The notes: generated by a model from the letters alone, not told the origin. Shown: positions 10,474 to 62,833, counted from the first letter of the stretch. The stretch: 64,000 bases of DNA from an uncultured Eubacteriales bacterium (GCA_934454405.1 CAKSFN010000006.1:10503-74502); one strand, 5' to 3'. A program made the numbers and translations.

Positions 10474-10502
10474 TTGACAAAGCTTTTCGTATGTATTATC
10501 AT
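10474..10502 (+). promoter_or_regulatory. Sigma-A type promoter
   Basis: TTGACA-17 nt-TATCAT upstream of the first lipoprotein gene. Confidence 0.55.
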
Positions 10503-10566
10503 ACAGACAGAGTGTTGCAATAGTCTGTCTTTTACGCTCCCGAAAAAAGGAAAGGATAAAGAAATT

Positions 10567-12111
10567 ATGCTCAAAAGAATATTCTCCGTTCTTCTTGCCG
10601 CCGCCGCGCTGTTCCTTTCCGCTGCCTGCGACCGACAGCCTTCCGCCGCGCCGACGCGGGGCTTCACTCTTGCCGGGCTGCCCGACATCGGCGGGTATAA
10701 ACCGAAAGGCTCTCCGACATATTTCGACACGGCGCTGACCGAGTTCGTCCCGGACGACGGCTACGGAACGCTTGCGCCGTATCTCGGCGACATGTATGAG
10801 TATTATCTCGACGGCGGAATCTCCGGAAGTTCGCGCGCGAAAGATCCGTATACCGTCATTCCGATTTACGGGCTCTGCACCGCCGACGGCAGGATAGTCA
10901 CCGCGCCGATATACAAAAGCGTCGTATACCGGGACGGGTATTATCTTCTCGAGCGGTTCGAGCCTGCGACTGTATCCGTTTTAGCGCAGTCCTTTCCTGT
11001 CGGAGATACGGACGTTACATATCTGATAATACCCTCCGACGGTTCGTTTGTGGCCGAGCTTAAAACGTGCGGCACGGCGAAGTATTGCGGTGACGGAATA
11101 TTCGCGTATTATCACTCTTCTTCAAAAAATTCCGCAAAAACGGCATACTGCACCGCCCGCGGCGAGATATTGTATTTTGACAAAAGCGAATTCTTCGGTT
11201 TCACGCTCTCTTTTTATAACGGCGTCGCGCTTGAAGAAAACTTCGTTTCCGAGTCGGCGGACGGGGAGTCGGAGTACGCATATCGCTTTGTCGATACTTC
11301 TTTCAACACCGTTTCAACCCCCGTCGAAGCCAAAGATTTCAGGTGCGGGCTGTTTTGCGTCGGCGACGGAAACGGCAAATACGGCGTGACGGCGAACGGC
11401 AAAGATATGCTGCTTCCCGTTGAATACGACGGCGTGTTCGGCGACGAAAACGGCATAGTTGCGGTAAAAGGCTCGGCGGCTTACGCGTTTGATCCCGATA
11501 TGAAGTCCCTCGGCACGTTCGACATCGGCGGCGACGGGCTGAAAAACAACGTCGAAGCCGCCCGTATAGTCAGCCCCGACGCCGTTTGTTTTTCGACCTT
11601 GTATACAGGCACGTTTTTGCTTACGAATTCGGGCAAAAGACAGAATATTTCCGGATTTTACGATACGGTTTTTTATCCCGACAGCGGCGTTTACTCCGTT
11701 TCTCTGTCCGACGGCGGAGCGGTTCTCGACCGTGACTTAAACGAGCTTTTCAAAGCACCCGAGGGTTATTCCGTAAATATGTGGGTACTGCCTTGCGACA
11801 TTCTCGTTTTTTACGCTATGCGGTCTTCCGAGGCTATTGTTTACGACCCCGAAAACGGAAAAACGCGTAAATACGAGCTTTCGGCATACTTTGACGGTCT
11901 CGGAGGCTTTTTTCTGACAGGTTCTCCCGAAAAGCGGACGCTTGCGCTCACCGACCCCGTCACGGGCGAACAAAAAACAAAGGTTGACAGTCTGGCGCGC
12001 GCTCTCGGCACCGCTCTCGGCACTCTTGTTTTTTACGATCGCGGCGGTTACGCATATACAGTTGACGAAAATTTCAACACCGTTTGCTGTGCGCCGATAA
12101 ACAGGGACTGA
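10567..12111 (+). CDS. WG-repeat lipoprotein, paralogue A
   Basis: Signal peptide plus lipobox (LFLSAAC). It has GKYG..G...LP.EYD type WG repeats, and its ends are conserved with the two downstream paralogues. Start at MLKRIF. Confidence 0.75.
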   Translation: MLKRIFSVLLAAAALFLSAACDRQPSAAPTRGFTLAGLPDIGGYKPKGSPTYFDTALTEFVPDDGYGTLAPYLGDMYEYYLDGGISGSSRAKDPYTVIPIYGLCTADGRIVTAPIYKSVVYRDGYYLLERFEPATVSVLAQSFPVGDTDVTYLIIPSDGSFVAELKTCGTAKYCGDGIFAYYHSSSKNSAKTAYCTARGEILYFDKSEFFGFTLSFYNGVALEENFVSESADGESEYAYRFVDTSFNTVSTPVEAKDFRCGLFCVGDGNGKYGVTANGKDMLLPVEYDGVFGDENGIVAVKGSAAYAFDPDMKSLGTFDIGGDGLKNNVEAARIVSPDAVCFSTLYTGTFLLTNSGKRQNISGFYDTVFYPDSGVYSVSLSDGGAVLDRDLNELFKAPEGYSVNMWVLPCDILVFYAMRSSEAIVYDPENGKTRKYELSAYFDGLGGFFLTGSPEKRTLALTDPVTGEQKTKVDSLARALGTALGTLVFYDRGGYAYTVDENFNTVCCAPINRD

Positions 12112-12321
12112 ACGGCGAACGACGCGAGATCCGACGCCCGCGACAGGCGCAGGGGGAAATAAGCCTATATCCGATTTGCGTTTGTGAATATTTTGCAAAC
12201 TGATGCGTTTTCGCGTCACAAAACCATTTGTAAAACGTTTGATATACTGAACGGGCAAATATCATTATTCAGAATATAAAAATATATTATTCATGCTCTC
12301 TCACATCAAAGGGGTTTTGAA

Positions 12322-13836
12322 ATGAAAAAAGCCGTCTCTTTTATTCTCCTTTTCGCTGTTCTTCTGACGCTGTTCTGCGCCTGCAAGAAAAACGGCGAAA
12401 CACAGCCGACTTCTTCGTCCGAACCGACAACGTGGGGCTTAATTCTCGACGAACTGCCCGACATCGGCAAGTATAAGCCGGCGACTTCGCCGCGAATGTT
12501 TGATAAGTACGTCGATAATCTTATCCCGCGCTCCGATTACGGCGAACTTGTGCCGTATCTCGGCGCCGTCGCGGATTACTTTTTCAATATCTCGGACGCC
12601 GCCGCGAACTACACAACGGTTAAAGACGGAACTTTTGCCGAAACGAAAGGGCTTTTCGGGCTTTGCCGCAAGGACGGAACTATTGTCACCGACCCTGTTT
12701 ATGCGTCCGTTCAATACTGCGACGGTTACTATCTGCTGAAAAAGGCTTCCGTCGATACGACGTATGACCCCTCTGATTTTCGCGGCAATTTTTATGTTGT
12801 TCCGAAAGACGGCTCTTCGATTTTTTCTTTCGGAAAAAACGTTTATGTCGAATACTGGGGCTGCGGAGTATTCCGCGCAATATATGACTGTGAAAACAAT
12901 AACGAAAAATATTATTCCGCGACGGGAAAACTGCTGCTCGACAACTCCGACGGCAATTATTTTCTGACACGTTTCACAAACGGTGTCGCGAGTCTCCTTT
13001 TTGACGGTCAGACACGCTTTGTCGATACTTCCTTTAAGACTTTGCTGACCGTTCCCGATGCGGAAATGCTTTCCGACAACGGATATTTTGCCGTGCTGAC
13101 GGACAGCGGAAAGTATATGATATACAAAGGCACAAAGCCGCTTTCGGACAGAAAATTCGATAAAAAACCCGCATACGATAACGGATATTTCCTTATCCGC
13201 GACGGAGAGTACGCCGTTGTGCTTGACGAAAAACTGAAAGAGGTCTCCCGTTTTCCCGTTGACCCTGCGGAAGAAGATATTTATTTATATTCCGCGAATG
13301 TTCTTTCCGTAGGCGGACGTTTGATAGACAACAGCGGAAAAAAACTTCCGTATGACTCTCTTTCGTATATCCCCGAACTGAAAATGTATGTGGGCGGCAA
13401 TTACGGAAGCGGTGAAAACGGAAGCGTCACATACCGCGTTGTTTCGAAGGACTTAAAAACACTTTATACCGCCCCGAAAGATTGGTATATCACTAATTTT
13501 AATATCGGCAGATATGTCGTTCTGAAACGCTCCCTTGACCCCGCCAACGGCGAAGTTTACGAAAATAGACTTGCGGACACCTCCGATTGGAGCATTGTCG
13601 AAAACGTTTTTCTTATCGACGGCTTTGACGGCTATTCTCTCCCGACCGAGGACGGCAGTCACCGCAACCTCTTTTCGGGCAAGGACGGCAAAGTTCTGCT
13701 GACGTATTCGACATTTTTCGCCGTGTCCGAAACCTCTCTCGGCACTCTGTATTTCTACGACCTCGACGGCTATGCCTATACAACAGACGCAAATCGGAAC
13801 GTGCTTTGCCGCACAACGATGAACGCAACAGACTGA
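12322..13836 (+). CDS. WG-repeat lipoprotein, paralogue B
   Basis: Lipobox LTLFCAC. N-terminal TTWG..LDELPDIGKYK and C-terminal GTLYFYDLDGYAYT..NVLCRTTMN are shared with paralogue C. Confidence 0.8.
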   Translation: MKKAVSFILLFAVLLTLFCACKKNGETQPTSSSEPTTWGLILDELPDIGKYKPATSPRMFDKYVDNLIPRSDYGELVPYLGAVADYFFNISDAAANYTTVKDGTFAETKGLFGLCRKDGTIVTDPVYASVQYCDGYYLLKKASVDTTYDPSDFRGNFYVVPKDGSSIFSFGKNVYVEYWGCGVFRAIYDCENNNEKYYSATGKLLLDNSDGNYFLTRFTNGVASLLFDGQTRFVDTSFKTLLTVPDAEMLSDNGYFAVLTDSGKYMIYKGTKPLSDRKFDKKPAYDNGYFLIRDGEYAVVLDEKLKEVSRFPVDPAEEDIYLYSANVLSVGGRLIDNSGKKLPYDSLSYIPELKMYVGGNYGSGENGSVTYRVVSKDLKTLYTAPKDWYITNFNIGRYVVLKRSLDPANGEVYENRLADTSDWSIVENVFLIDGFDGYSLPTEDGSHRNLFSGKDGKVLLTYSTFFAVSETSLGTLYFYDLDGYAYTTDANRNVLCRTTMNATD

Positions 13837-13988
13837 CGCGCGCCCGAAAAAGAAACGCACCGCCGTGCGGCTCGGTTGCAGCGAAAAAGGCAAGTCCGAA
13901 ACGCGCGATTTTTCAGATGATATATAAAGCGTTCGACAGGTGACCATGCCGTTGAATCGCAGATTTTCATATCAAAGGGGTTTTGACA

Positions 13989-15479
13989 ATGAAAAAAACC
14001 GTCTCTCTTCTTCTCCTTTTCGCGGTTCTTCTGACGCTGTTCTGCGCCTGCAAGAAAAATGAAACGCAGCAGCCAACCTCTTCGCCCGAACCGACAACGT
14101 GGGGCTTCATGCTCGACGAACTGCCCGACATCGGCAAGTATAAGTCGGCGGATTCGCCGCGAATGTTTGATAAGTACGTCGATAATCTTATCCCGCGTTC
14201 CGATTACGGCGAACTTATGCCGTATCTCGGCTCCGTTGTTCAATATGAGACCGCAGAGGTCGAAGATGTATATATGTCGGAAATGATTCGCGGCTACTAC
14301 GGTCTTTGCACCGTTGACGGCGTTATTGTGACCGATCCCGTTTACGACAGCATCGAATATTGCGACGGTTATTATCTGCTTGGAAAAAACCACAGCGGCG
14401 ACGATACCGAGACATCCGAAACTTTCCTGATACCGAAAGACGGTTCGTCAATATTCGAATTTCCGAAAAATAAATCCGTTTCTTATCGAGGAGACGGCAT
14501 TTTCAGTTGCTGTGAGGCTTCGTATGGAGCTGTCGATTCCGACACCTCTTATTATTCCGCAGCGGGAAAATATCTTTTCACGGCAGATGAAAGTTCCTCC
14601 GTTTCCGAGTTCGTCAACGGCACGGCGCTGCTGTACGCATACGGCTCGGACTTTAAGCTTGAATACTACATAATAAACAAGTCGGGCAAAAGAATCAAAA
14701 AATTCGAGTACGGCGTTGCAGGCGCCGCATCTACCGCACCCGGTGAGTTTGTTGTTTACGGTGCCGACGGAAAATGCGGGCTTTATCGCGGAGAAAAACA
14801 GATACTGCCTTGCGAATATGACAGTGTATGCTCCGATGATTACGGCAATATATTTGCGGTAAAGAATAAAACAGTCACCGTCTTTGACGAAAACAAAAAA
14901 GTGAAGACGACATTCGACATTTCGGGCAACTTTAATGCGAAGCGTATCAACCTTGACGGGGATCTCATTTCTGTCGGAGATCGGAACATGGTTTACAATT
15001 TTACGGGAGCTTCCCGTCAATGCGATTATGCGGACGAACTTGGCAATGGACTGTATTTGCTTCACATCGGCAGAAAGCAAACCGTTGTGGATAAAAACCT
15101 GAAAACCGTATGCGACGTGCCCGAAGACGGTCGCCCGCAAGCGTTCTTTGCAAGCGAAAAGTATATTCCGTGCCTGTTCAACGATGACGGAAGCGGTTAT
15201 TATTATCGGCTGCTCGACAAAAACAGCGGCAAACTTTCAGCCGAAGAATATCCTGAATTGCTGAACCGCAAATATCTTTTGAAAAAGAATGAGGACGGCA
15301 GCGGATTTTCCGTTATTGCCCCCGACGACCTCTCCGTTATTCGGACGTATGACACCTTTATTGATTCTGTCGAGACGTCCCGCGGCACATTGTATGTTTA
15401 CGACTGTGACGGCTATGTTTGGACGGTTGACTCCGATTGGAACGTGCTCTGCCGCACAACGATGAACCTCACGGATTAG
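13989..15479 (+). CDS. WG-repeat lipoprotein, paralogue C
   Basis: ATG 13989 has the same GGGGTTTTGA upstream context as paralogue B. Same lipobox, and the first ~230 nt are nearly identical to B. Confidence 0.8.
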   Translation: MKKTVSLLLLFAVLLTLFCACKKNETQQPTSSPEPTTWGFMLDELPDIGKYKSADSPRMFDKYVDNLIPRSDYGELMPYLGSVVQYETAEVEDVYMSEMIRGYYGLCTVDGVIVTDPVYDSIEYCDGYYLLGKNHSGDDTETSETFLIPKDGSSIFEFPKNKSVSYRGDGIFSCCEASYGAVDSDTSYYSAAGKYLFTADESSSVSEFVNGTALLYAYGSDFKLEYYIINKSGKRIKKFEYGVAGAASTAPGEFVVYGADGKCGLYRGEKQILPCEYDSVCSDDYGNIFAVKNKTVTVFDENKKVKTTFDISGNFNAKRINLDGDLISVGDRNMVYNFTGASRQCDYADELGNGLYLLHIGRKQTVVDKNLKTVCDVPEDGRPQAFFASEKYIPCLFNDDGSGYYYRLLDKNSGKLSAEEYPELLNRKYLLKKNEDGSGFSVIAPDDLSVIRTYDTFIDSVETSRGTLYVYDCDGYVWTVDSDWNVLCRTTMNLTD

Positions 15480-17011: not shown

Positions 17012-17036
17012 CTCTTGCTTTGTATATCTTTGTTTT

Positions 17037-17136
17037 TTGTGCAGTCAACTGCACAAAGTCGTAAAAATCGTGCGTTTTGTGCAGTCAACCGCACAAATAT
17101 ATAAAAATCATCTGTTTTATGCAATCAACTGCACGA
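17037..17136. promoter_or_regulatory. Three 20-bp palindromes phased exactly 40 bp apart
   Basis: TTGTGCAGTCAACTGCACAA (17037), TTGTGCAGTCAACCGCACAA (17077) and TTATGCAATCAACTGCACGA (17117), with 9-bp arms and a 2-nt centre. Confidence 0.6.
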
Positions 17137-17282
17137 ATTTGCAACAGGGGTTATCGGCAAGAATAAAATATTTTATACTGTTAAATCGTGTGATTTTCGC
17201 TGTTGAATTTACCGTTTATTGCCGATAACGGCAAAGAACGAGCATTGTTTTATTATCCAGCCTTTTTTGTTATTGAAATTGA

Positions 17283-24300: not shown

Positions 24301-24873
24301 TCACAGCGCGTAAAACAGCACGCCCAGCACCGCCGAAAACAGAAGCAGGATTATAGGGGAGAGTTGCTTTTTGCGCAGCAGTTTGTATCCTGCGGCAGCG
24401 GCGCCGATAACCGCAAACATCACAATTCTCTTGATGTTCGGCGCAAAGCCCGAGCCGACGGCGGAAAAGCCGAAAAGCGTTTCAAGCGCCATAATAAGCG
24501 CCGTTGCAAGTATCATCGCGATTATGCACGGGCGAATGCCGTTCAGAAATGCCTGCACGCCGCCGTATTTCATCAGCCGCTTCATCGCAAGCGCAATAAG
24601 CGAAATGATGATAAAAGACGGAAGCACGACCCCGAATGTCGCCGCAAGCGCGCCGAAAAAGCCGCCCTGTGTCGAGCCGACGAACGTCGCCATGTTTATC
24701 GCAAGAGGTCCGGGTGTCGATTCCGAAACCGCTATCATATTAAGAAATTCACTTTCGGCAAGCCACTCATTTGAGATAACGGTCTCGCGTATCAGGGAGA
24801 TCATGCCGTACCCGCCCCCGAAAGAGACCGTGCCTATCATCAGAAAATTGAGAAAGAGTTGAAGATATATCAT
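24301..24873 (-). CDS. chrA: Chromate transporter family protein (second half-size subunit)
   Basis: 190 aa, multi-TM. N-terminal FGGGYGMISL motif typical of the CHR family, paired with 25505-26104. Confidence 0.85.
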   Translation of the reverse strand: MIYLQLFLNFLMIGTVSFGGGYGMISLIRETVISNEWLAESEFLNMIAVSESTPGPLAINMATFVGSTQGGFFGALAATFGVVLPSFIIISLIALAMKRLMKYGGVQAFLNGIRPCIIAMILATALIMALETLFGFSAVGSGFAPNIKRIVMFAVIGAAAAGYKLLRKKQLSPIILLLFSAVLGVLFYAL

Positions 24874-25004
24874 TTTCTATCGCCTCTTTCTGTCGTTAAT
24901 ATAAAATCTTTTATTCATCTTGCGGATTTCTTTTTGTTTTTGTAAAAGGTATTGTTTTTATGGGTTTACGGAAAGATTCATAATATATCTGCTGTGCCTG
25001 AAGA

Positions 25005-25440
25005 GTGCATAGCCTTTTTCTTTCCGCTTTGCGGAGTTTGCGTCGTTTTTCGCAGGCGAAAAGCCGAGCAAACAGTATTATCCGATTTTGGGCGAAGAAA
25101 AGCCCGTTTTCACAAGCCTGACAGTGTTGCTTTTGCCCTGTTTTATTGTCTCGTCGCTTAAAATACGAAAGTATTCTCGCACTCCTCGACTTCAAAACAG
25201 AACAAAATCAAGGCTGTCAGGTCGAAGAGTTTCACGGAGATAATGTTTTTCTCCGTGAAACGGTCACTTTGAAGCAATACTTTGTGTATTGCAAGAAGTG
25301 AACGCAATGCGGAGGGAAAGATTAGCCCGTGAAACCTTATGAGAACGGACTTTTCTTCGCCCTTACGCCGTGCGATAGTTCGTTCCTTCGAACGAACCGC
25401 ACATGGCTAATCGCAAAAAATGCAGCGGCTTTTTTGCGAT
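25005..25440 (+). repeat. Structured interspersed element, family 1, copy A (carries a nested insert)
   Basis: Its 79-nt left part and ~75-nt right part are near-identical to 26421-26585. The right part is the core ACGCCGTGCGA-[hairpin]-CGCACATGGCT-[hairpin]. Confidence 0.8.
25090..25362. repeat. Nested ~273-bp insert closed by an inverted repeat
   Basis: GGGCGAAGAAAAG(C)CCGTT..CAC at 25090 pairs with GTGAAAC...CGGACTTTTCTTCGCCC ending at 25362. It is absent from copy B. Its internal blocks match the insert at 62208-62482. Confidence 0.75.
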
Positions 25441-25508
25441 GCCGTAACCGCCCCGAAAGAGACCGTGCCGATCATCAGAAAATTGAGAAAGAGTTGAAGA
25501 TATATCAT
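25439..25508 (-). pseudogene. Duplicated, frame-broken 5' fragment of the downstream chrA
   Basis: 70 nt matching 24803-24873 with 2 substitutions and a 1-nt deletion. It keeps the ancestral ATGA overlap with the stop of the upstream chrA. Confidence 0.8.
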
Positions 25509-26104
25509 TTTTTGCCCCCTCTTTCCCGACATCTGCCGATAAGGTAGACCGCCACTCCGAGCGCGCCGCATATCAGAATGTAGAAAATCGAGGAGAACGA
25601 AACGGAGAACAGCGAAACCGCTGTCATGGCAGCCGCGACCGCGACAGCCACCGCGATATTGAACGCGTTTTTCTTCATTTCTTTCAGCATTTTCAGCCCT
25701 GCCGAGAATATCAGAAAGACCACTCCGACCCGTATGCCCTCAAATGCATAGCGGACGTATTCAAGCCCGAGGAATCTGTCCAAAAACAGCGAAATGACAT
25801 AGATTATAAAAAACGACGGCATACATATCGCCAAAGTCGCAACCGCCGAACCCGCAAGCCCGGCGATTTTACTTCCGATATAAGTCGCCGCGTTGACCGC
25901 GATGGGTCCCGGCGTCGATTCGGCGATAGCAACTATATCGAGGAACTCATCCTCGTCTATCCAATTCTTTTTGCCGACCAATTCGGCTTCCAGCAGGGCA
26001 ATCATTCCGTAACCGCCGCCGAACGTGAAAGCCCCGACCTTGAAAAAGGTGAGAAAGAGCGTCAAAAGGTTTTTAAGCTTGCTGTTTTTCATATTGTTTG
26101 ACAT
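25505..26104 (-). CDS. chrA: Chromate transporter family protein (first half-size subunit)
   Basis: 199 aa, multi-TM, with the FGGGYGMIALLE motif. Confidence 0.85.
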   Translation of the reverse strand: MSNNMKNSKLKNLLTLFLTFFKVGAFTFGGGYGMIALLEAELVGKKNWIDEDEFLDIVAIAESTPGPIAVNAATYIGSKIAGLAGSAVATLAICMPSFFIIYVISLFLDRFLGLEYVRYAFEGIRVGVVFLIFSAGLKMLKEMKKNAFNIAVAVAVAAAMTAVSLFSVSFSSIFYILICGALGVAVYLIGRCRERGGKK

Positions 26105-26182
26105 CTGTTATTTTATCCGCGAAAATAATATTTATATTCCCGATATTTCGTCTCGCCGCTTCGTCTCCGCTCCGCGGCTTCG

Positions 26183-26234
26183 CCGCCGCTCAACTCTCGC
26201 AACGACGCTTCGCGCCGTCCGAGGTTTCGCGGAA
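26183..26234. repeat. 52-bp GC-rich repeat, copy 1 of 3
   Basis: CCGCCGCTCAACTCTCGCA.CG.C...CGCGCCGTCCGAGGTTTCGCGGAA. Further copies are at 27248 and 27408. Confidence 0.75.
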
Positions 26235-26420
26235 AACAAAAAAGATACCATTGTTCAGAAAAACAAACCAAAAGTAATTGATGTTTTTTTTCGGTTATAT
26301 CGGCAAGTGCGAAAAGTGTTTGCGGAGCAAACAGGGGAATTGCTGAAAAGACGAAGCTATTTGTTAAATACGCAAAGTACGGAATCTGTTAGCTGAAGCA
26401 CACAGGGGACTCCCCGAAAT

Positions 26421-26585
26421 GTGCATAGCCTTTTTCTTTCCGCTGCGCGGAGTTTGCGTCGTTTTTCGCAGGCGAAAAGCCGAGCAAACGGTATTATCCT
26501 ATTTTTATACGCCGTGCGATAGTTCGCGCATACGCGCAAACCGCACATGGCTAATCGCAAAAAATGCAGCGGCTTTTTTGCGATG
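26421..26585 (+). repeat. Structured interspersed element, family 1, copy B (no nested insert)
   Basis: Same left and right parts as copy A. The inner hairpin differs (GCGC-ATAC-GCGC versus GTTCGTTC-CTTC-GAACGAAC) but stays paired. It ends 1 nt before the stop of the next gene. Confidence 0.8.
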
Positions 26586-26586
26586 G

Positions 26587-27099
26587 TTATGCCTTTGTTA
26601 TGTTCGGTATGAGCCAGCTGAACGCCGACGAGCCGCCCGCGCAGATAAGTCCGACCGCTATCGCCGCGCATATAACGCCGCAGCATATCGCGGGAAATGC
26701 GCGCTTGAATTTGATGTCAAGCAGGGAAGCGACGAGCGTTCCCGTCCACGCGCCCGTGCCGGGCAGGGGAATGCCGACAAAGAGAGCCAGCCCGATAAAA
26801 AGCCCGATACCGGTCTTGCCCGAAAGTTTTTTTCCGCCCTTTTCGCCTTTTTCAAGGCAGAACGTGAAGAATTTGCCTATAAATTTTTTGTCCTTGCCCC
26901 AGACAAGCACTTTTCTCGCAAAAAAGTAGATTATCGGAACGGGAACGAGGTTGGCAAGCGCCGAAATTATGCAGACCTGAACTATCGGCAGGTCGTAGCC
27001 GAAAAAGCCCGTCGGAATTGCGCCGCGCAGTTCGACAACGGGAACCATTGAAATAAGAATTATCCAAAGCCACGGGTATTTTGTAAAGAATGCGGACAT
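26587..27099 (-). CDS. COG2426-type small membrane protein (putative small multidrug export protein)
   Basis: Start at MSAFFTKYP, preceded by AGGAGA. Has a VVELRGAIP motif and 4-5 TM helices. Confidence 0.7.
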   Translation of the reverse strand: MSAFFTKYPWLWIILISMVPVVELRGAIPTGFFGYDLPIVQVCIISALANLVPVPIIYFFARKVLVWGKDKKFIGKFFTFCLEKGEKGGKKLSGKTGIGLFIGLALFVGIPLPGTGAWTGTLVASLLDIKFKRAFPAICCGVICAAIAVGLICAGGSSAFSWLIPNITKA

Positions 27100-27247
27100 A
27101 ATTCTCTCCTCTTTTACCTCCGCGCGTGATAAAACGCCTGTTCGAGCGTCTTTTACCGCGCGAAAATGATATAATGTGTCTGTTTTTGTTGCGGTATACT
27201 TGTTTTTTTTAATTTCCCGCGGCTGTTTTTCCTTGACCGCGGCTCCG

Positions 27248-27299
27248 CCGCCGCTCAACTCTCGCATCGGCACGTCGCGCCGTCCGAGGTTTCGCGGAA
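27248..27299. repeat. 52-bp GC-rich repeat, copy 2 of 3
   Basis: Near-identical to 26183-26234. Confidence 0.75.
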
Positions 27300-27407
27300 G
27301 GCCGAACGATACCGCATATATTATATATTAAATCAACGAAAAAAACAAGTTACTGTTTACATAATTCCTGTAAAGATCCTGTAAATTACATAAATCTTTC
27401 CGTTTCT

Positions 27408-27459
27408 CCGCCTCTCAACTCTCGCATCGGCACGTCGCGCCGTCCGGGGTTTCGCGGAA
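27408..27459. repeat. 52-bp GC-rich repeat, copy 3 of 3
   Basis: CTCAACTCTCGCATCGGCACGTCGCGCCGTCCGGGGTTTCGCGGAA. Confidence 0.7.
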
Positions 27460-27556
27460 AGCCGTATCATATATCACTTTTTATGGGCTGTCAAATCAAC
27501 AAAATTCTGTTTTTTGCTTATTTTTGAAGCATAAACCCTGTTTGGTTCTTGGTTTT

Positions 27557-27612
27557 CCGTTTTGCCTCCCGGGGCGCTGCCGAGCGGAGAGCAAAACGGC
27601 GGCGAAGCCGTT
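27557..27612. repeat. Structured ~55-bp repeat, copy 2 of 2
   Basis: Same CCGTTTTGC/GCAAAACGG closing stem and ACGGC/GCCGT hairpin as 15634-15688. Confidence 0.7.
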
Positions 27613-27682
27613 GTCCGAAAGGGCATTCGCGCGGAGAAATTCGACCTTTCGCGAAGCCCTGCCGCCCGCGAATCGCTGACCG

Positions 27683-28282
27683 TTATTTTTCGTCCAGATT
27701 TTTCAAAAAAGACAGCCTGTAAATCGGCGCGATGCCGTGCTTTTTAAGCAGCTCGTAATGCTCTTTCGTAGGGTAGCCCTTGTGCTTTTCAAGCGCGTAC
27801 TGCGGGTATTCCTCCGCGAGTTTTTTCATCAGCCGATCTCTGTAAACCTTTGCCACGACCGAAGCGGACGCTATCGACGCGCTTTTTGCGTCGCCGCCCA
27901 CGACGGTCTCGCACGGCACGGGTATATTGCGCGCCCTGTTGCCGTCGATAAGCGCAAAATCGGGCTTGACGGAAAGATTTTCGATCGCCCTGCGCATCGC
28001 CAGAAACGAGGCGTTGAGTATGTTTATTTCGTCTATCTCCGCAGGAGACGCCACTCCTATCCCGACCGCGACCGCGTTTTCGAGAATGACGGGATACAGC
28101 TTTTCACGCTTCTTTTCGGAAAGCTTTTTCGAGTCGTTTATTCCCTCCGGCACAAAGTCCTCGGGCAGTATCACCGCCGCCGCCGCGACGGGTCCGCACA
28201 GCGGTCCTCTGCCCACTTCGTCAACGCCGCACACAAGCGCCCCGTATTTGGCGTAATATTCCCTGTCAAACGAGTTATCCAT
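27683..28282 (-). CDS. rnhB: Ribonuclease HII
   Basis: GVDEVGRGPLCGPVAAAAV, plus the typical length and layout. Confidence 0.9.
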   Translation of the reverse strand: MDNSFDREYYAKYGALVCGVDEVGRGPLCGPVAAAAVILPEDFVPEGINDSKKLSEKKREKLYPVILENAVAVGIGVASPAEIDEINILNASFLAMRRAIENLSVKPDFALIDGNRARNIPVPCETVVGGDAKSASIASASVVAKVYRDRLMKKLAEEYPQYALEKHKGYPTKEHYELLKKHGIAPIYRLSFLKNLDEK

Positions 28283-41676: not shown

Positions 41677-43236
41677 ATGGACGATTTTGAAAAAAACGAA
41701 CTCAATATAAACGAGGCTGAGTCTGCGGAACGCAAGCGCCTTGACGCGGAGAATGCGGCAGCGGCGGCTTCATCCGCGCAGACAGACGGTCAGGCAGCCC
41801 CTTTGCAGCCCTCCGCTCAACCGCGATACGCCTACGACCCGCAAACGGGCGAGCGCTATGAGGTCGGCACAGGACCCGAACCCCACGCGCCTGCGGCACA
41901 GCTGTCATATCACAGCCCGAGCCCGACTTACGCCGCTCCCGGTCAGACGCGTCCGCAGCCTCCGCGTTATGAATATTCGTATCGCAACGGTCAGCCGCAG
42001 ACCAATTATAATTACGGCGGCGAACACGGCTACGGCAGAGTTGCTCCGAACGGAACGTATTCATATTCCGCTCCGCAGCAGCCTCCGAGACCTCCCAAAA
42101 AGCCGAAAGAGAAAAAGAAGTTCGGCATCGGCGCCGTTTGCGCGCTGCTTGTCGCGGCGGTAATCTTTTCAGCCGGTCTCGGCATCGGCGGCTCGTATAT
42201 GCTTTTCGGCAGAAACGGCACATCGGGCGGCTCGCAGTCCCCGTCGGGCGGCAGCACCGTCATTTACGAAAGCACCGAACCCAAAGTTGACACCTCCTCC
42301 GTCGCGGGCAGCACGGACACCGCAAAAGTCGTCGCGGCTGTCGAAAACTCCGTCGTCGAGATAACAACGGAGACCGTCACCACCTCGAATTTCTTCGGTC
42401 AGTACGTCACACAGGGCGCAGGCAGCGGTGTTGTTGTCAGCTCGGACGGATATATAGTCACGAACAATCACGTCGTTGACGGCGCAACAAATATAAAAGT
42501 CACGCTCGCAAACAAAACGACCTATGACGCCACGGTTGTCGGCACGGACGAAAAAACCGACATCGCCGTTGTGAAAATCAACGCAACGGGTCTGACGCCT
42601 GCGGTATTCGGCGACTCCTCGCAGATAGTTGTCGGACAGGACGTTGTCGTTATCGGCAACCCGCTCGGCTCGCTCGGCGGAAGCGTCACCAAGGGCATTG
42701 TCAGCGCGCTGGACCGTCAGATAACGATAGACAATCAGACGATGACTCTTTTGCAGATTGACGCAGCTGTCAACCCCGGCAACTCCGGCGGCGGCGCGTT
42801 CGACGCAAAAGGTAACCTCATCGGCATAGTCAACGCAAAATCGACGGGCTCGAATATAGACAACCTCGGCTTCGCAATCCCCGTCAACACCGCAAAAGCG
42901 GTTATAAACGATATTATCAAATACGGTTACGTTACGGGCAGGATCTCAACGGGCTTTGAACCCATAGACCTTACCGACCGCGCAACCGCGATAAGTTACC
43001 GTGTTTCAAGAACCGGTATATATGTATACAAGGTCACGGACAACGCCTCCCCGTTCAGAAGCGGCGACCTGCTTGTCAGCATGGACGGCACGGTCATCAG
43101 CTCGATGTCGGACTACAACTCCGTCGTTGACGCCCACAAGATAGGCGACACGATAGACGTAACCGTTATCAGAAACGGCGAACAGAGAACTCTTTCGCTG
43201 ACCTTCGGTGAATACGTCCCGTCGCAGAACGGCTGA
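41677..43236 (+). CDS. HtrA/DegP-like serine protease with PDZ domain
   Basis: Pro/Gln-rich N-terminus and a TM helix. Catalytic TNNHV, DIAVVK and GNSGG, plus a C-terminal PDZ-like region. Confidence 0.88.
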   Translation: MDDFEKNELNINEAESAERKRLDAENAAAAASSAQTDGQAAPLQPSAQPRYAYDPQTGERYEVGTGPEPHAPAAQLSYHSPSPTYAAPGQTRPQPPRYEYSYRNGQPQTNYNYGGEHGYGRVAPNGTYSYSAPQQPPRPPKKPKEKKKFGIGAVCALLVAAVIFSAGLGIGGSYMLFGRNGTSGGSQSPSGGSTVIYESTEPKVDTSSVAGSTDTAKVVAAVENSVVEITTETVTTSNFFGQYVTQGAGSGVVVSSDGYIVTNNHVVDGATNIKVTLANKTTYDATVVGTDEKTDIAVVKINATGLTPAVFGDSSQIVVGQDVVVIGNPLGSLGGSVTKGIVSALDRQITIDNQTMTLLQIDAAVNPGNSGGGAFDAKGNLIGIVNAKSTGSNIDNLGFAIPVNTAKAVINDIIKYGYVTGRISTGFEPIDLTDRATAISYRVSRTGIYVYKVTDNASPFRSGDLLVSMDGTVISSMSDYNSVVDAHKIGDTIDVTVIRNGEQRTLSLTFGEYVPSQNG

Positions 43237-43382
43237 CGCAGTCCCGCGCGCCGCGATAAAACCTGCGGCGTCCCTTTTCCGCCGCGCGGAGTTATTCCGC
43301 GTATGCGGAAAAGACAGTATTCCGTTTCGCGCTCGCAATCACGCGATCGGAAAACTCAAATTGCTTGCTCGTGTTTTTTTCA

Positions 43383-44152
43383 TATTTCTTTCTCTTGGAA
43401 ACTCGGCTCCGCTTCGGTGGGGTCGAGTTTCATTTTAATAATATATATGAAAGTATTTAGTTTGCGCAGGGAAAAATAGTTCGGCGAAATAAATTCGCCG
43501 AAGACCGGTCGATCCGATACGCCGTGCGAAATTGTTGCTGCGCAACACGCACATGGCTGTTCTCAAAACGGCGGCGCGTTTTGAGATTTTCTTTCTCTTG
43601 GAAGAGGGGCTTCACTTCGGTGAAGTTTCTCTTCATTTTAATAATATATATGAAAGTATTTAATTTGCGCAGGGAAACATAGTTCGGCGAAATAAATTCG
43701 CCGAAGATATATTGATTTGATACGCCGTGCGAAATTGTTGCTGCGCAACACGCACATGGCTGTTCTCAAAACGACGGTGCGTTTTGAGAGTTTCTTTCTC
43801 TTGGAAGTGCGGCTCTGCTTTTGCAGGGTCGCGCTTCACTTTATTTATATGTATTGTATTTAAGTGTTTAGTTTTCGCAAGGAGTAATAGTTCGGCGAAC
43901 TAAATTCGCCGAAGACCGGTCGATCCGATACGCCGTGCGAAATTGTTGCTGCGCAACACGCACATGGCTGTTCTCAAAACGGCGGCGCGTTTTGAGAGTT
44001 TCTTTCTCTTGGAAACTCGGCTCCGCTTCGGTGGGGCCGAGTTTCACTTTATTCTCTTGGAAGTGCGGCTCCGCTTCGGTGGGGTCGAGTTTCATTTTAA
44101 TAATATATATGAAAGTATTTAGTTTGCGCAGGGAAACATAGTTCGCCGAAGA
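43383..44152 (+). repeat. Tandem array (about 3.7 units of 203-208 bp) of hairpin-dense, apparently non-coding units
   Basis: CTCTTGGAA recurs at 43392, 43595, 43798, 44006 and 44054. Each unit holds 5 hairpins in a fixed order. The first hairpin has three unrelated but fully paired sequence variants. Confidence 0.9.
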
Positions 44153-44192
44153 GGTGTCTGTTTGCCTGATATGTTTAGCCCAAAACATATTC

Positions 44193-44221
44193 TTGACAAA
44201 TCCTTTTGTTAGGTGTATAAT
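44193..44221 (+). promoter_or_regulatory. Consensus sigma-A promoter of the GNAT gene
   Basis: TTGACA-17 nt-TATAAT. Confidence 0.7.
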
Positions 44222-44265
44222 GTTCTGTAAAATTTGCAACGTATGCTTTATAAAAGGAGAAGATA

Positions 44266-45018
44266 ATGGAATTTATACGTCTCTCTCATGAAAATCTTGA
44301 TACCGAGCATATCTGCTGCGCAATTTCGAACAACAAGGACGTTCAGGTATCGTCGAAAAAAGCGTGGCTTGCGGAACGTCTTGACGAGGGGCTTGTTTTT
44401 CTGAAAGGCAATGTCCGCGGTAAATGTTTTATCGAATATATCCCCGCTGAAAACGCGTGGGCGCCGATAGCCGCCGACGGGTATATGTATATTGACTGTC
44501 TTTGGGTCTCGGGACAATTCAAGGGACACGGATATTCCTCCGAACTGCTTGCCGAATGTATTCGGGACAGCCGCGAAAAAGGGAAAAAGGGGCTTTGCGT
44601 TCTGTCTTCGAAAAAGAAACACGGTTTTTTGTCCGACCCGAAATATCTTCTTTATAAAGGCTTCAAACCTGCCGACGCGGCGTCTCCGTATTTTGAACTT
44701 TGGTATTTGCCGTTTGACGAATCGGCAGAAATTCCGCAATTCCGCGCTTGCGTGAACGAGCCCGCGCCAATGTCCGACGGTTTTACTCTTTTTTACACTT
44801 CGCAATGTCCGTTTACCGCAAAGTATGTTCCTCTGCTATGCGCCGCCGCCGAAAAACGCGGCGTAAAACTGACGTCCGTTCATATTGATACACGCGAAGC
44901 CGCACAAAACGCCCCATGCCCGTTTACGACCTTTTCACTTTGGCACAACAGCAATTTCATCACGCATGAGATTCAGTCCGTCCCCAAATTCGAAAAAATC
45001 ATCGACGGCATAGTCTGA
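44266..45018 (+). CDS. GNAT N-acetyltransferase with YoaP-like C-terminal domain
   Basis: Acetyl-CoA motif region (VSGQFKGHGYSSELL) and a C-terminal ..LFYTSQCPF.. region as in YoaP-type proteins. RBS AAGGAGA. Confidence 0.7.
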   Translation: MEFIRLSHENLDTEHICCAISNNKDVQVSSKKAWLAERLDEGLVFLKGNVRGKCFIEYIPAENAWAPIAADGYMYIDCLWVSGQFKGHGYSSELLAECIRDSREKGKKGLCVLSSKKKHGFLSDPKYLLYKGFKPADAASPYFELWYLPFDESAEIPQFRACVNEPAPMSDGFTLFYTSQCPFTAKYVPLLCAAAEKRGVKLTSVHIDTREAAQNAPCPFTTFSLWHNSNFITHEIQSVPKFEKIIDGIV

Positions 45019-45054: not shown

Positions 45055-45168
45055 AAAAAAATCTTTCGGAATGAAAATCCAAAATCCTGCGGAATGAAAC
45101 CTCGAAATCTTTCGGAATGAAATCACGAAATCCTGCGGAATGAAATCTTGAAATCTTTCGGAATGGTA
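45055..45168. repeat. 5 x 23-bp tandem repeat abutting the -35 box
   Basis: CGGAATGAAA at 45067, 45090, 45113, 45136 and 45159 (the last copy is degenerate: CGGAATGGTA). Units alternate CTTTCGG and CCTGCGG, giving a 46-bp super-unit. Confidence 0.85.
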
Positions 45169-61679: not shown

Positions 61680-61709
61680 AAAAACAGTCCTCGAAAGAGG
61701 GCTGTTTTT
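61680..61709 (+). terminator. Rho-independent terminator after tRNA-His
   Basis: AAAAACAGTCCTC-GAAA-GAGGGCTGTTTTT. Duplicated at 62153-62182. Confidence 0.75.
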
Positions 61710-61720
61710 GCTTTTGGGAC

Positions 61721-61881
61721 GGGTAAAGGAATTAACGAACCTGTTTCGCGCAGCGAAACAAGGTTCGTCGCAGCAGCGATTTTTGCAAAGCAAAAATCGA
61801 CTGTGAAGTCGCGAGTGAGCAAAAAACTTCGGGCACCGCATCAGCGGTCGAAGTTTTGTGAAACGCAGCGTACCCCTTTAC
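61721..61881 (+). repeat. 161-nt cloverleaf-like structured element, family 2, copy 1
   Basis: Closing stem GGGTAAAGG/CCCCTTTAC around three hairpins: ACGAACCTGTTTCGC.., CGATTTTTGC-AAA-GCAAAAATCG and AAAACTTCG..CGAAGTTTT. Confidence 0.8.
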
Positions 61882-61946
61882 TCGGCGTAAAGTTTTGATA
61901 AGACAAAAATAAATGAAATGTTGCGGTTGTTTTTTATTTTCGGGGT

Positions 61947-62107
61947 GGGTAAAGGAATTAACGAACCTGTTTCGCGCAGCGAAACAAGGTTCGTCGCAAC
62001 AGCGATTTTTGCAAAGCAAAAATCGACTGTGAAGTCGGGAGTGAACAAAAAACTTCGGGCACCGCATCAGCGGTCGAAGTTTTGTGAAACGCAGCGTACC
62101 CCTTTAC
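61947..62107 (+). repeat. Family 2 element, copy 2
   Basis: Differs from copy 1 at 3 positions by eye. Its 5' flank GGGGTGGGTAAAGGA is the complement of the tRNA-His 3' end. Confidence 0.8.
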
Positions 62108-62152
62108 ATTGCATGAAGTTATAACAAGGCAAAAAAGGGAAAATTGACGAAA

Positions 62153-62182
62153 AAAAACAGTCCTCGAAAGAGGGCTGTTTTT
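62153..62182 (+). terminator. Duplicate of the tRNA-operon terminator
   Basis: Identical hairpin and downstream GCTTTTGGGACGGGTAAAGG as at 61680-61729. Confidence 0.7.
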
Positions 62183-62193
62183 GCTTTTGGGAC

Positions 62194-62628
62194 GGGTAAA
62201 GGGATTTGGCTGAAAATGACCGAACTCTCATCGGTTTTGACGGGCTGATTTTCGCCCTGACTTTCGCAAAAGCCTTGTAAATACGTCAAGTATTCACTAC
62301 GGCTTTTTTGTCGTTATGACAAAAATCCGCACCGTGAAAACTGCCGGCACCCGCCACAGAGAAATTTTCGAGGAATTTTTTCTTTTTGAGACGCAGGCGG
62401 GCTGACGCCCGCCAAGACGAAAAGAGAGAAAATAACCGAAAATAGCCTGTGTCGGGCGATAAGAGTTCGGTCATTTTCAGCCGTTAACCTGTTTCGCGCA
62501 GCGAAACAAGGTTCGTCGAAACGGCGGAAAAAGGAACTTTTTCCGACCGTGAAGTCGCGAGTGAGCAAAAACTTCGGGCACCGCATCAGCGGTCGAAGTT
62601 TTGTGAAACGCAGCGTACCCCTTTACCC
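62194..62628 (+). repeat. Family 2 element, copy 3 (swapped middle hairpin, carries a 275-bp nested insert)
   Basis: Same closing stem (GGGTAAAGGG/CCCCTTTACCC) and outer hairpins. The middle hairpin is replaced by CGGAAAAAG-GAA-CTTTTTCCG. Confidence 0.8.
62208..62482. repeat. Nested 275-bp insert with perfect 21-bp terminal inverted repeat
   Basis: GGCTGAAAATGACCGAACTCT (62208-62228) and AGAGTTCGGTCATTTTCAGCC (62462-62482). Its internal blocks match the insert at 25090-25362. Confidence 0.8.
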
Positions 62629-62833
62629 TGCGTAAAGTTTTGATAAGACAAAAATAACGGCAGGATTTCCTGCTCGTGGAAGCGCGACGGCGGCAAGGTC
62701 ACCTTTGAAATAAGCGTTCCTCCCAACACTTCCGCGCGTTTTTGCGCCTGCGGTGTTGACAGGGAGCTCTCTGTCGGCGCGAATGTGATTGAGGCTGAAA
62801 TAAACTGAAACGAACGCGCAATTTAGCTGTTAT

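Follow-up and report, generated by a model that had tools for sequence, protein, structure and literature searches.

The BOX elements of Streptococcus pneumoniae are assembled from boxA-boxB(n)-boxC modules and are present in about a hundred copies per genome. REP sequences share a conserved GT[A/G]G head and flank the gene for a RAYT, a Y1 transposase. Integron attC sites are palindromes bounded by R''/R' boxes (RYYYAAC...GTTRRRY), with the integron integrase encoded next to them. REPs exceed 100 copies per genome and alternate in orientation within BIMEs (PMC2817692). Direct repeats that are both long and variable, of 8-514 bp, have been described for IS1634 and IS1549 (PMC2266710, refs 60 and 61 therein); in 2008 these repeats were stated to lack any proposed mechanistic model (PMC2266710).

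The window, which is the whole 64-kb stretch of DNA analysed here, contains a short repeat, hereafter E, with a core consisting of ACGCCGTGCGA, a hairpin, CGCACATGGCT and an A/T-clamped hairpin. There are five copies, every one on the + strand: two dispersed copies, A and B, and three in a tandem array at 43.4 kb. A search of the window with the pattern GCCGTGCG-N(10-40)-CGCACATGGC gave + strand matches at 25367, 26511, 43521, 43724 and 43932, against none in 100 dinucleotide-preserving shuffles, and two exact 11-mers recur five times where none is expected. The two-hairpin layout that the initial annotation had described at these same five places is thus borne out. A covariance model was built from twelve element copies, all of which it recovers; in the 64 kb it finds the known five copies, with scores of 40-104 bits, and nothing else convincing. 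The array and the dispersed copies belong to one family, as had been proposed.

In the core, an outer pairing (GCC-GUGCG/CGCAC-AU-GGC) surrounds a second hairpin, the sequence of which differs between the copies. It is GTTCGTTC-CTTC-GAACGAAC in copy A, GCGC-ATAC-GCGC within GTTC../..AAAC in copy B, and GTTGC-TGC-GCAAC in the array. A terminal hairpin, clamped by an A-run and a T-run, comes after the core with its inner hairpin. Reading of the sequence confirmed the three inner hairpins and the terminal hairpins as originally reported.

Copy A, on the + strand, is interrupted. Its left arm (La, 25005-25084), which contains the hairpin GTTTGC..TTTTCG-CAGG-CGAAAA..GCAAAC, is not contiguous with the remainder of the element (25364-25441, covariance-model score 98.9 bits), made up of the core at 25365-25408 and the A/T-clamped terminal hairpin at 25410-25440. 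Between the two lies a 279-nt palindromic insertion (25085-25363), with 27-nt inverted ends at 25090-25116 and 25336-25362 and a fold z-score of -12. This palindrome is found at the identical position, between GATTTT and TTACGCC, in three different E copies, one of the palindrome-bearing copies having a divergent core; its copies at two other loci are 98.6-99.3% identical. A longer, autonomous element bounded by the palindrome ends was not present in the fetched loci. The nested palindrome does look like a MITE, and E is itself capable of harbouring a MITE-like element.

On either side of copy A is one copy of an 88-bp segment, directly duplicated from the 5' end of chrA, the second gene of a pair of Chromate_transp genes (24301-24873, - strand). 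The left copy of the duplication, F_A (24803-24890), comprises the intact 5' end of the gene and about 17 nt upstream, while the right copy (25439-25525) is a frameshifted and truncated 5' fragment that abuts the terminal hairpin. The left copy is separated from the left arm by 114 nt of A/T-rich filler (24891-25004, + strand), which is unique and absent from all other fetched loci. The first gene of the pair (25505-26104, - strand) has a 5' end that is the duplicated target in other strains.

Copy B, also on the + strand, has a longer left side. A left extension (the Lx module, 26291-26419), with the hairpin GTGTTTGC-NNN-GCAAACAG and an insertion inside it, precedes the left arm (26420-26505), which is followed by the remainder of the element (26506-26585, 104 bits) with the core at 26509-26552 and the terminal hairpin at 26554-26584. 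The left arm common to copies A and B, noted from the start, is 92% identical between them (24997-25089 compared with 26413-26505). The end of the terminal hairpin, at 26584/26585, is 1-2 nt away from the stop codon (26587-26589) of an Sm_multidrug_ex (COG2426-type) open reading frame on the - strand (26587-27273); the true start of this gene is probably near 27117, where conservation between strains stops. The initial annotation was right about this adjacency. It further suggested that copy B may serve as the 3' structure of the gene; a role as an ordinary 3' terminator is not supported, as the terminal hairpin receives no terminator-like call on either strand. The same holds for the dispersed copies as such, in which the terminal hairpin lacks a call on both strands and no T tract comes after it.

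The array at 43385-44160 (+ strand) has a period of 203 nt and comprises 3.3 units plus partial units, with cores at 43519-43558, 43722-43761 and 43930-43969. Two terminator-like hairpins are present in every unit, both on the + strand: the terminal hairpin, here followed by TTTCTTTCT, and a second hairpin of 15 bp, whose three G.U pairs form on the + strand only, followed by ATTTTAAT. In all, 12 terminator-like sites occur in the array, where 2.4 are expected. The genes flanking the array are on the same strand as E, unlike those around the dispersed copies. Related strains have one or two cores at this locus, most of them one, and in one-core strains the core is again located between direct duplications of local sequence. 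The 43.4-kb array is an expanded form of this mostly single-core locus.

The fold is better conserved than its sequence. When 44 distinct copies are aligned to the model, standard pairs occupy 98% of the cells, and at 13 of the 26 pairs both sides have changed; the alignment was fitted to the model, and the sequences are related and represent few independent events. Sliding the 3' partners by 1-3 columns, as a control, reduces pairing to 26-55% and leaves 0-2 pairs changed on both sides. Structure preserved through sequence change, as proposed in the initial annotation, is therefore upheld. Its constant outer pairing stands inside the window and gives way in related copies, in which the outer stem has compensated variants (GCGCG/CGCGC, GCGCA/TGCGC and ACGCG/CGCGT) that the exact pattern missed. 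The copies sampled have at least six inner-hairpin sequences and four types of terminal hairpin. What does not vary are unpaired parts: ATAC before GCC, the two-base AU bulge, and GGCU. At the level of sequence comparison, this shows the pairing to be under selection. Strong purifying selection on structure is also compatible with a functional RNA.

The two strands of E fold about equally well, with mean energies of -30.9 and -32.5 kcal/mol, and wobble pairs occur on both. In the commonest inner hairpin, a C.A mismatch on the strand we call E+ becomes a U.G wobble on the other, E-; in the long variant of the terminal hairpin, the wobble is on E+. The folded species may therefore be RNA or single-stranded DNA, of either strand. 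An assignment of the strand by folding energy was rejected, as there is no clear difference.

Comparison between strains reveals gain and loss of the element. At the chrA-C site, copy A is missing from 12 related loci, where one chrA gene directly follows the other and the 88-bp segment is present once; among the loci compared, copy A is present only in the window and in locus L088, which lacks the nested palindrome. Derived bases absent from the other strains are common to both 88-bp copies of the window, so the duplication arose in place. The direction of events we can only infer, since deletion between the F copies (F x F), as the flanking duplications are called here, could also yield the empty site. 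A second empty-site comparison, at the hydrogenase cluster, gave no clean empty site, the differences between strains being more complicated there.

At about 8-10 other loci the core is likewise enclosed by locus-specific duplications of 25-233 bp (F-E-F). These measure 79-135 bp at the chrA-N site, about 38-106 bp at three sites in the hydG/hydE cluster, 65-113 bp at a ferredoxin-like gene, about 210 bp at a lipoprotein gene and 233 bp at locus L058. Duplication of the flanks is above the 99th percentile of 400 random controls in 34 of 48 instances. The inserts are 83-548 nt long and contain no open reading frame; at nine loci their ends have no common inverted termini, and the left ends are different at every locus. 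The right-hand F starts at the base of the terminal hairpin, or else beyond a 35-nt right extension, although this apparently 'fixed' right end is partly an effect of ascertainment, the copies having been found through the core. In most cases F comes from a gene on the opposite strand, of which it covers the promoter or 5' end, so that an intact gene start is kept. The flanking genes are on the strand opposite to E at all of the roughly ten dispersed loci, the array being the exception, and the junction on the hairpin side is located early in the transcribed part of the gene, anywhere between the 5' UTR and about codon 23. A locking of orientation to the direction of replication was considered and rejected; the GC-skew signal is weak and inconsistent, loci of the L013 type having the opposite contig orientation and a skew near zero or opposite.

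The number of E+F units at the same locus is one, two or three, depending on the strain. Hairpin variants and modules are exchanged from one copy to another: each of the two main inner-hairpin types occurs with each of the two main terminal-hairpin types, giving all four combinations, and orthologous sites carry different hairpin types. In the UMGS964 genome (see below) the left arm also occurs without a core, and at locus L067 it is fused directly to the end of the COG2426 gene, with the core displaced. E is unstable between strains, and it is probably mobile.

An exact-pattern scan of 185,579 species genomes, one per species, found the core as part of an element only in the human-gut metagenome-assembled genome 'uncultured Clostridiales UMGS964', the representative of which has seven exact matches at five loci. 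Matches to a 22-nt pattern in Steroidobacteraceae and soil metagenomes are within a conserved coding gene, without the hairpins, and were set aside as unrelated. About 50 more loci, in human-gut assemblies belonging to the UMGS964 lineage, came from a metagenome scan; the orthologous ones are 83-97% identical to the window. No copy was found in the viral contigs, plasmids and phages searched. At the gathering threshold, three tRNAs are the only Rfam matches in the whole window; permissive scans of 24900-26700 and 43200-44300 gave chance-level hits (best 25 bits, against a threshold of 52). No Rfam family matches the core, which is thus outside the known RNA families. Literature searches returned no paper on UMGS964 and no described element with the anatomy of E. 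From these searches, the family appears restricted to one uncultured lineage of gut Clostridiales.

A tie to the chromate-transporter genes, suggested by the position of copies A and B, dissolves in the wider sample: related genomes carry E next to hydE/hydG, a ferredoxin-like gene, a lipoprotein gene and others. There is no specific link of E to chromate transport. A chromate-specific or riboswitch-like leader was likewise rejected, given that E is on the opposite strand to chrA, neighbours unrelated genes at other loci and, in 12 strains, does not occur at the chrA-C site. Two other candidate roles failed: a conserved small open reading frame on the minus strand, starting from GGCTATGCAC, does not keep its start codon and frame in copies A, B and the related copies, and a CsrA/Rsm-type sponge would need GGA loops, which are absent from the copies read.

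We consider it fairly probable that E is a non-autonomous, non-coding, modular interspersed repeat defined by its structure, of which the core is the best-conserved module. The order of modules is left extension, left arm, core, A/T-clamped hairpin and an optional right extension. The mechanism that we propose is based on comparison of fragments of metagenome assemblies. A copying step would place E in the early transcribed region of genes and duplicate a target of 25-233 bp; widely staggered breaks that are filled in, a nick-primed copy or a template-switch copy are candidates for this step. Unequal recombination between F copies would then build and collapse arrays such as that at 43.4 kb, and gene conversion may make E copies uniform. 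A putative protein would recognise E folded as single-stranded DNA or RNA, invariant bulge included. In 5' regions only insertions that restore promoter and start codon, as the duplication does, would survive, and this may explain the bias in position without targeting. A mobilising enzyme was not seen in the window, where 30 open reading frames were scanned and no transposase, integrase or Y1 domain was detected. Also against this reading, E has no terminal inverted repeats and is ragged at both ends, fitting no classical transposon, and its 8-10 or so copies per genome are few compared with REP or BOX.

Spread could proceed specifically by nick-primed copying, either target-primed retroposition from an E+ RNA or a replicative template switch, a route that we regard as unlikely. 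Copying of this kind would start in the single-stranded early transcribed region of a gene, and it would explain the junction at the hairpin foot, the ragged left ends with their 'transduced' sequence, the variable duplications of 25-233 bp and the antisense orientation. If true, it would constitute a SINE-like spread that has not been described in bacteria.

A second, also improbable, explanation makes E an RNA element in operon mRNAs, read on the E- strand as an intercistronic or 3'-end structure that would shield the upstream cistron, act in processing or insulate neighbouring genes from each other's transcription, with the duplications and arrays secondary. It accounts for the presence of both flanking genes on the E- strand at all of the approximately ten dispersed loci, for copy B starting 1-2 nt past a stop codon, for the C.A mismatch of the commonest inner hairpin turning into a U.G wobble on E-, and for the strong covariation. 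It is at odds with the array, whose orientation with respect to its flanking genes is reversed, and with the folding data, as the strands fold about equally and the wobble of the long terminal hairpin sits on E+. Nor is there a terminator-like call, and the variation of presence and copy number between strains argues against a regulatory part that is needed.

It is quite doubtful that E is instead a family of small-RNA genes on E+, tandemly amplified at 43.4 kb, from which read-through into the right-hand F (F_R) could make RNA antisense to the adjacent gene's 5' end. In favour of this idea are the array, with its + strand terminator-like hairpins, the terminal one followed by a T-rich tract (the 12 sites against 2.4 expected), and F_R, which is the reverse complement of the RBS and start region of the adjacent gene. 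Against it, neither the array nor copies A and B showed a sigma-70-like promoter for E on either strand; the left ends are ragged, conservation between loci does not extend into the sequence upstream of the copies, and the terminal hairpins of the dispersed copies have no T tract.

We attach a similarly slight probability to the core being a folded recombination site, attC-like or of the REP/IS200 type, for a dedicated tyrosine or HUH enzyme, with cassette-like arrays that site-specific recombination would have produced. Structure is kept while sequence varies, the 2-nt extrahelical bulge and its flanking bases are invariant, arrays exist, and a second element inserts site-specifically beside the core, all of which such a site would accommodate. 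It could not yield a single core between two copies of local sequence, however. In addition, RYYYAAC/GTTRRRY boxes and the GTAG head are absent, the array units are direct rather than alternating, and the scanned open reading frames of the window encode neither an integrase nor a Y1 transposase. Finally, that the five copies are unrelated, ordinary terminator hairpins resembling each other by chance deserves almost no credence: every part is a hairpin and the genome is rich in hairpins with A and T tracts, but the pattern count, the five-fold recurrence of 11-mers with none expected, the model scores of 40-104 bits and left arms 92% identical refute it.

If the favoured reading, of a modular interspersed repeat, holds, E remodels the 5' ends and promoters of genes in a gut Clostridiales lineage while sparing the genes themselves, as the gene start is duplicated at each insertion. 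Copy-number variation between strains and the tandem arrays would both result from this process. A short element with a defined hairpin and no enzyme of its own would offer a handle on the origin of long duplications and on a hairpin-reading protein. Screens for riboswitches or small RNAs would be misled by this family, because its covariation is real.

Among known systems, attC sites resemble E in the primacy of structure over sequence, in extrahelical bases, in position at gene ends and in arrays. They differ in that the invariant flanks of E are ATACGCC...GGCT, with no R/L boxes and no integrase domain in the scanned open reading frames, and in that the units of the E array repeat the same intervening DNA rather than different DNA. 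With IS1634, E has a single feature in common, its flank duplications of 25-233 bp at about nine loci, of a length that varies from copy to copy. The IS1634 family, at 1.5-2 kb, has a DDE transposase and defined ends, whereas E is 80-300 nt long, ragged and without an open reading frame; an IS1634-like gene or transposase domain was not among the scanned window open reading frames. Besides IS1634/IS1549, we found in the literature searched, and otherwise know of, no precedent in bacteria for target duplications that are both long and variable.

Like REP, BIME and REPIN sequences, E is an extragenic imperfect palindrome with compensated changes, it is clustered into composite structures, and it is presumably read as a folded single strand. 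Unlike them, it has about ten copies (seven exact cores in UMGS964, five in the window), its array units are direct, its stems begin with ACGCC and have no GTAG, no RAYT is present among the 30 open reading frames scanned, and its flank duplications are long. With BOX it shares being short, non-coding, hairpin-rich and modular, a location near gene starts, variability between strains and the lack of a transposase of its own; the sequences are unrelated, the host is another, and a genome has about ten copies of E, against about a hundred of BOX. To our knowledge, target duplications of 25-233 bp and (E+F)n arrays are features of E that BOX does not have. The initial annotation had named a known REP/BOX-like element as the alternative to its idea; E is like one in behaviour (presence and absence, copy number, shuffling, nesting), and it belongs to no described REP or BOX family. 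MITEs are likewise small, non-autonomous, structured and polymorphic in presence or absence (PMC10969869, PMC2229807); unlike E, they end in terminal inverted repeats and make a target duplication that is short and constant in length. The E family is real, undescribed and structurally constrained, and its F-E-F signature is uncommon. It is best read as a new REP/BOX/MITE-like family with unusually long and variable flanking duplications.

The 15-bp hairpin that recurs once per unit in the tandem array of E, the modular hairpin-forming repeat, lies at positions 43398-43431, 43601-43634, 43804-43837 and 44012-44045, with many compensated changes from unit to unit. Reading of units 1 and 2 shows in each hairpin three G.U pairs that are valid on the plus strand only, and after the hairpin a T-rich tail. 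Judged by these sequence features, the hairpin looks like a terminator acting at the RNA level, maintained by selection despite sequence divergence within the array.

A second hairpin-rich repeat family, with three copies of a 226-nt unit, directly follows the tRNA-Gly/Arg/His genes (61680-62660). Its units are interleaved with copies of a local terminator-like segment, at 61680-61733, at 62153-62206 (98% identity) and, in degenerate form, at 61906-61959. This family is organized as (flank + element)n, the same logic as E. One unit of this non-E array contains a MITE-like insertion (62207-62483) with 26-nt inverted ends that are 96% complementary; it is close in size to a palindromic element nested in E, but the two are only weakly similar in sequence, agreeing at 178 of 279 positions when globally aligned.

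Further repeats in the window lie in intergenic DNA or within genes. The former include a 23-nt tandem repeat of 4.7 copies (45059-45165), upstream of the DUF4143/AAA_14 ATPase gene, and a 40-nt tandem repeat of about three copies (17035-17154), carrying an A/T-flanked GTGCAGT..ACTGCAC hairpin that weakly matches the covariance model (24 bits). At 10474-15479, three paralogues arranged in tandem, each coding for about 500-545 amino acids, have repeated blocks in common (families D5, D7, D11, D14 and D17), including a lipoprotein-like signal peptide.

The interval from the chromate transporter genes (chrA) through the COG2426-type gene to RNase HII (24800-27700) occurs in at least four structural haplotypes when compared with related-strain loci L020, L063, L067 and L088, differing in the identity and order of the intergenic repeat modules, which marks it as a rearrangement hot spot. 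The Sm_multidrug_ex (COG2426-type) reading frame, as listed at 26587-27273 on the minus strand, probably starts too far upstream: strain-to-strain conservation ends at 27117, and the Pfam match begins at residue 81. A 77-nt G+C-rich minus-strand repeat, 70-84% identical between copies, has one copy upstream of chrA (26183-26259) and two upstream of Sm_multidrug_ex (27248-27324 and 27408-27484), and is also found in L040 and L076. It may be a leader common to these transporter genes; the sole Rfam signal was a sub-threshold match to GA-cis (20 bits, threshold 34.7).

The palindromic element within E is MITE-like and 279 nt long (25085-25363), with 27-nt inverted ends and a fold z-score of -12. 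Other copies are present in L063 (6264-6536), L079 (5372-5644) and L076 (9755-10027); no longer parent element was found in the fetched loci. In three different copies of E its insertion point is identical, at the GATTTT/TTACGCC junction, and these insertions are 98.6-99.3% identical even though the host cores are unlike, suggesting that E is a site-specific target of the palindrome. REP sequences are targets of some IS elements, and the proposed targeting of E would be similar behaviour.
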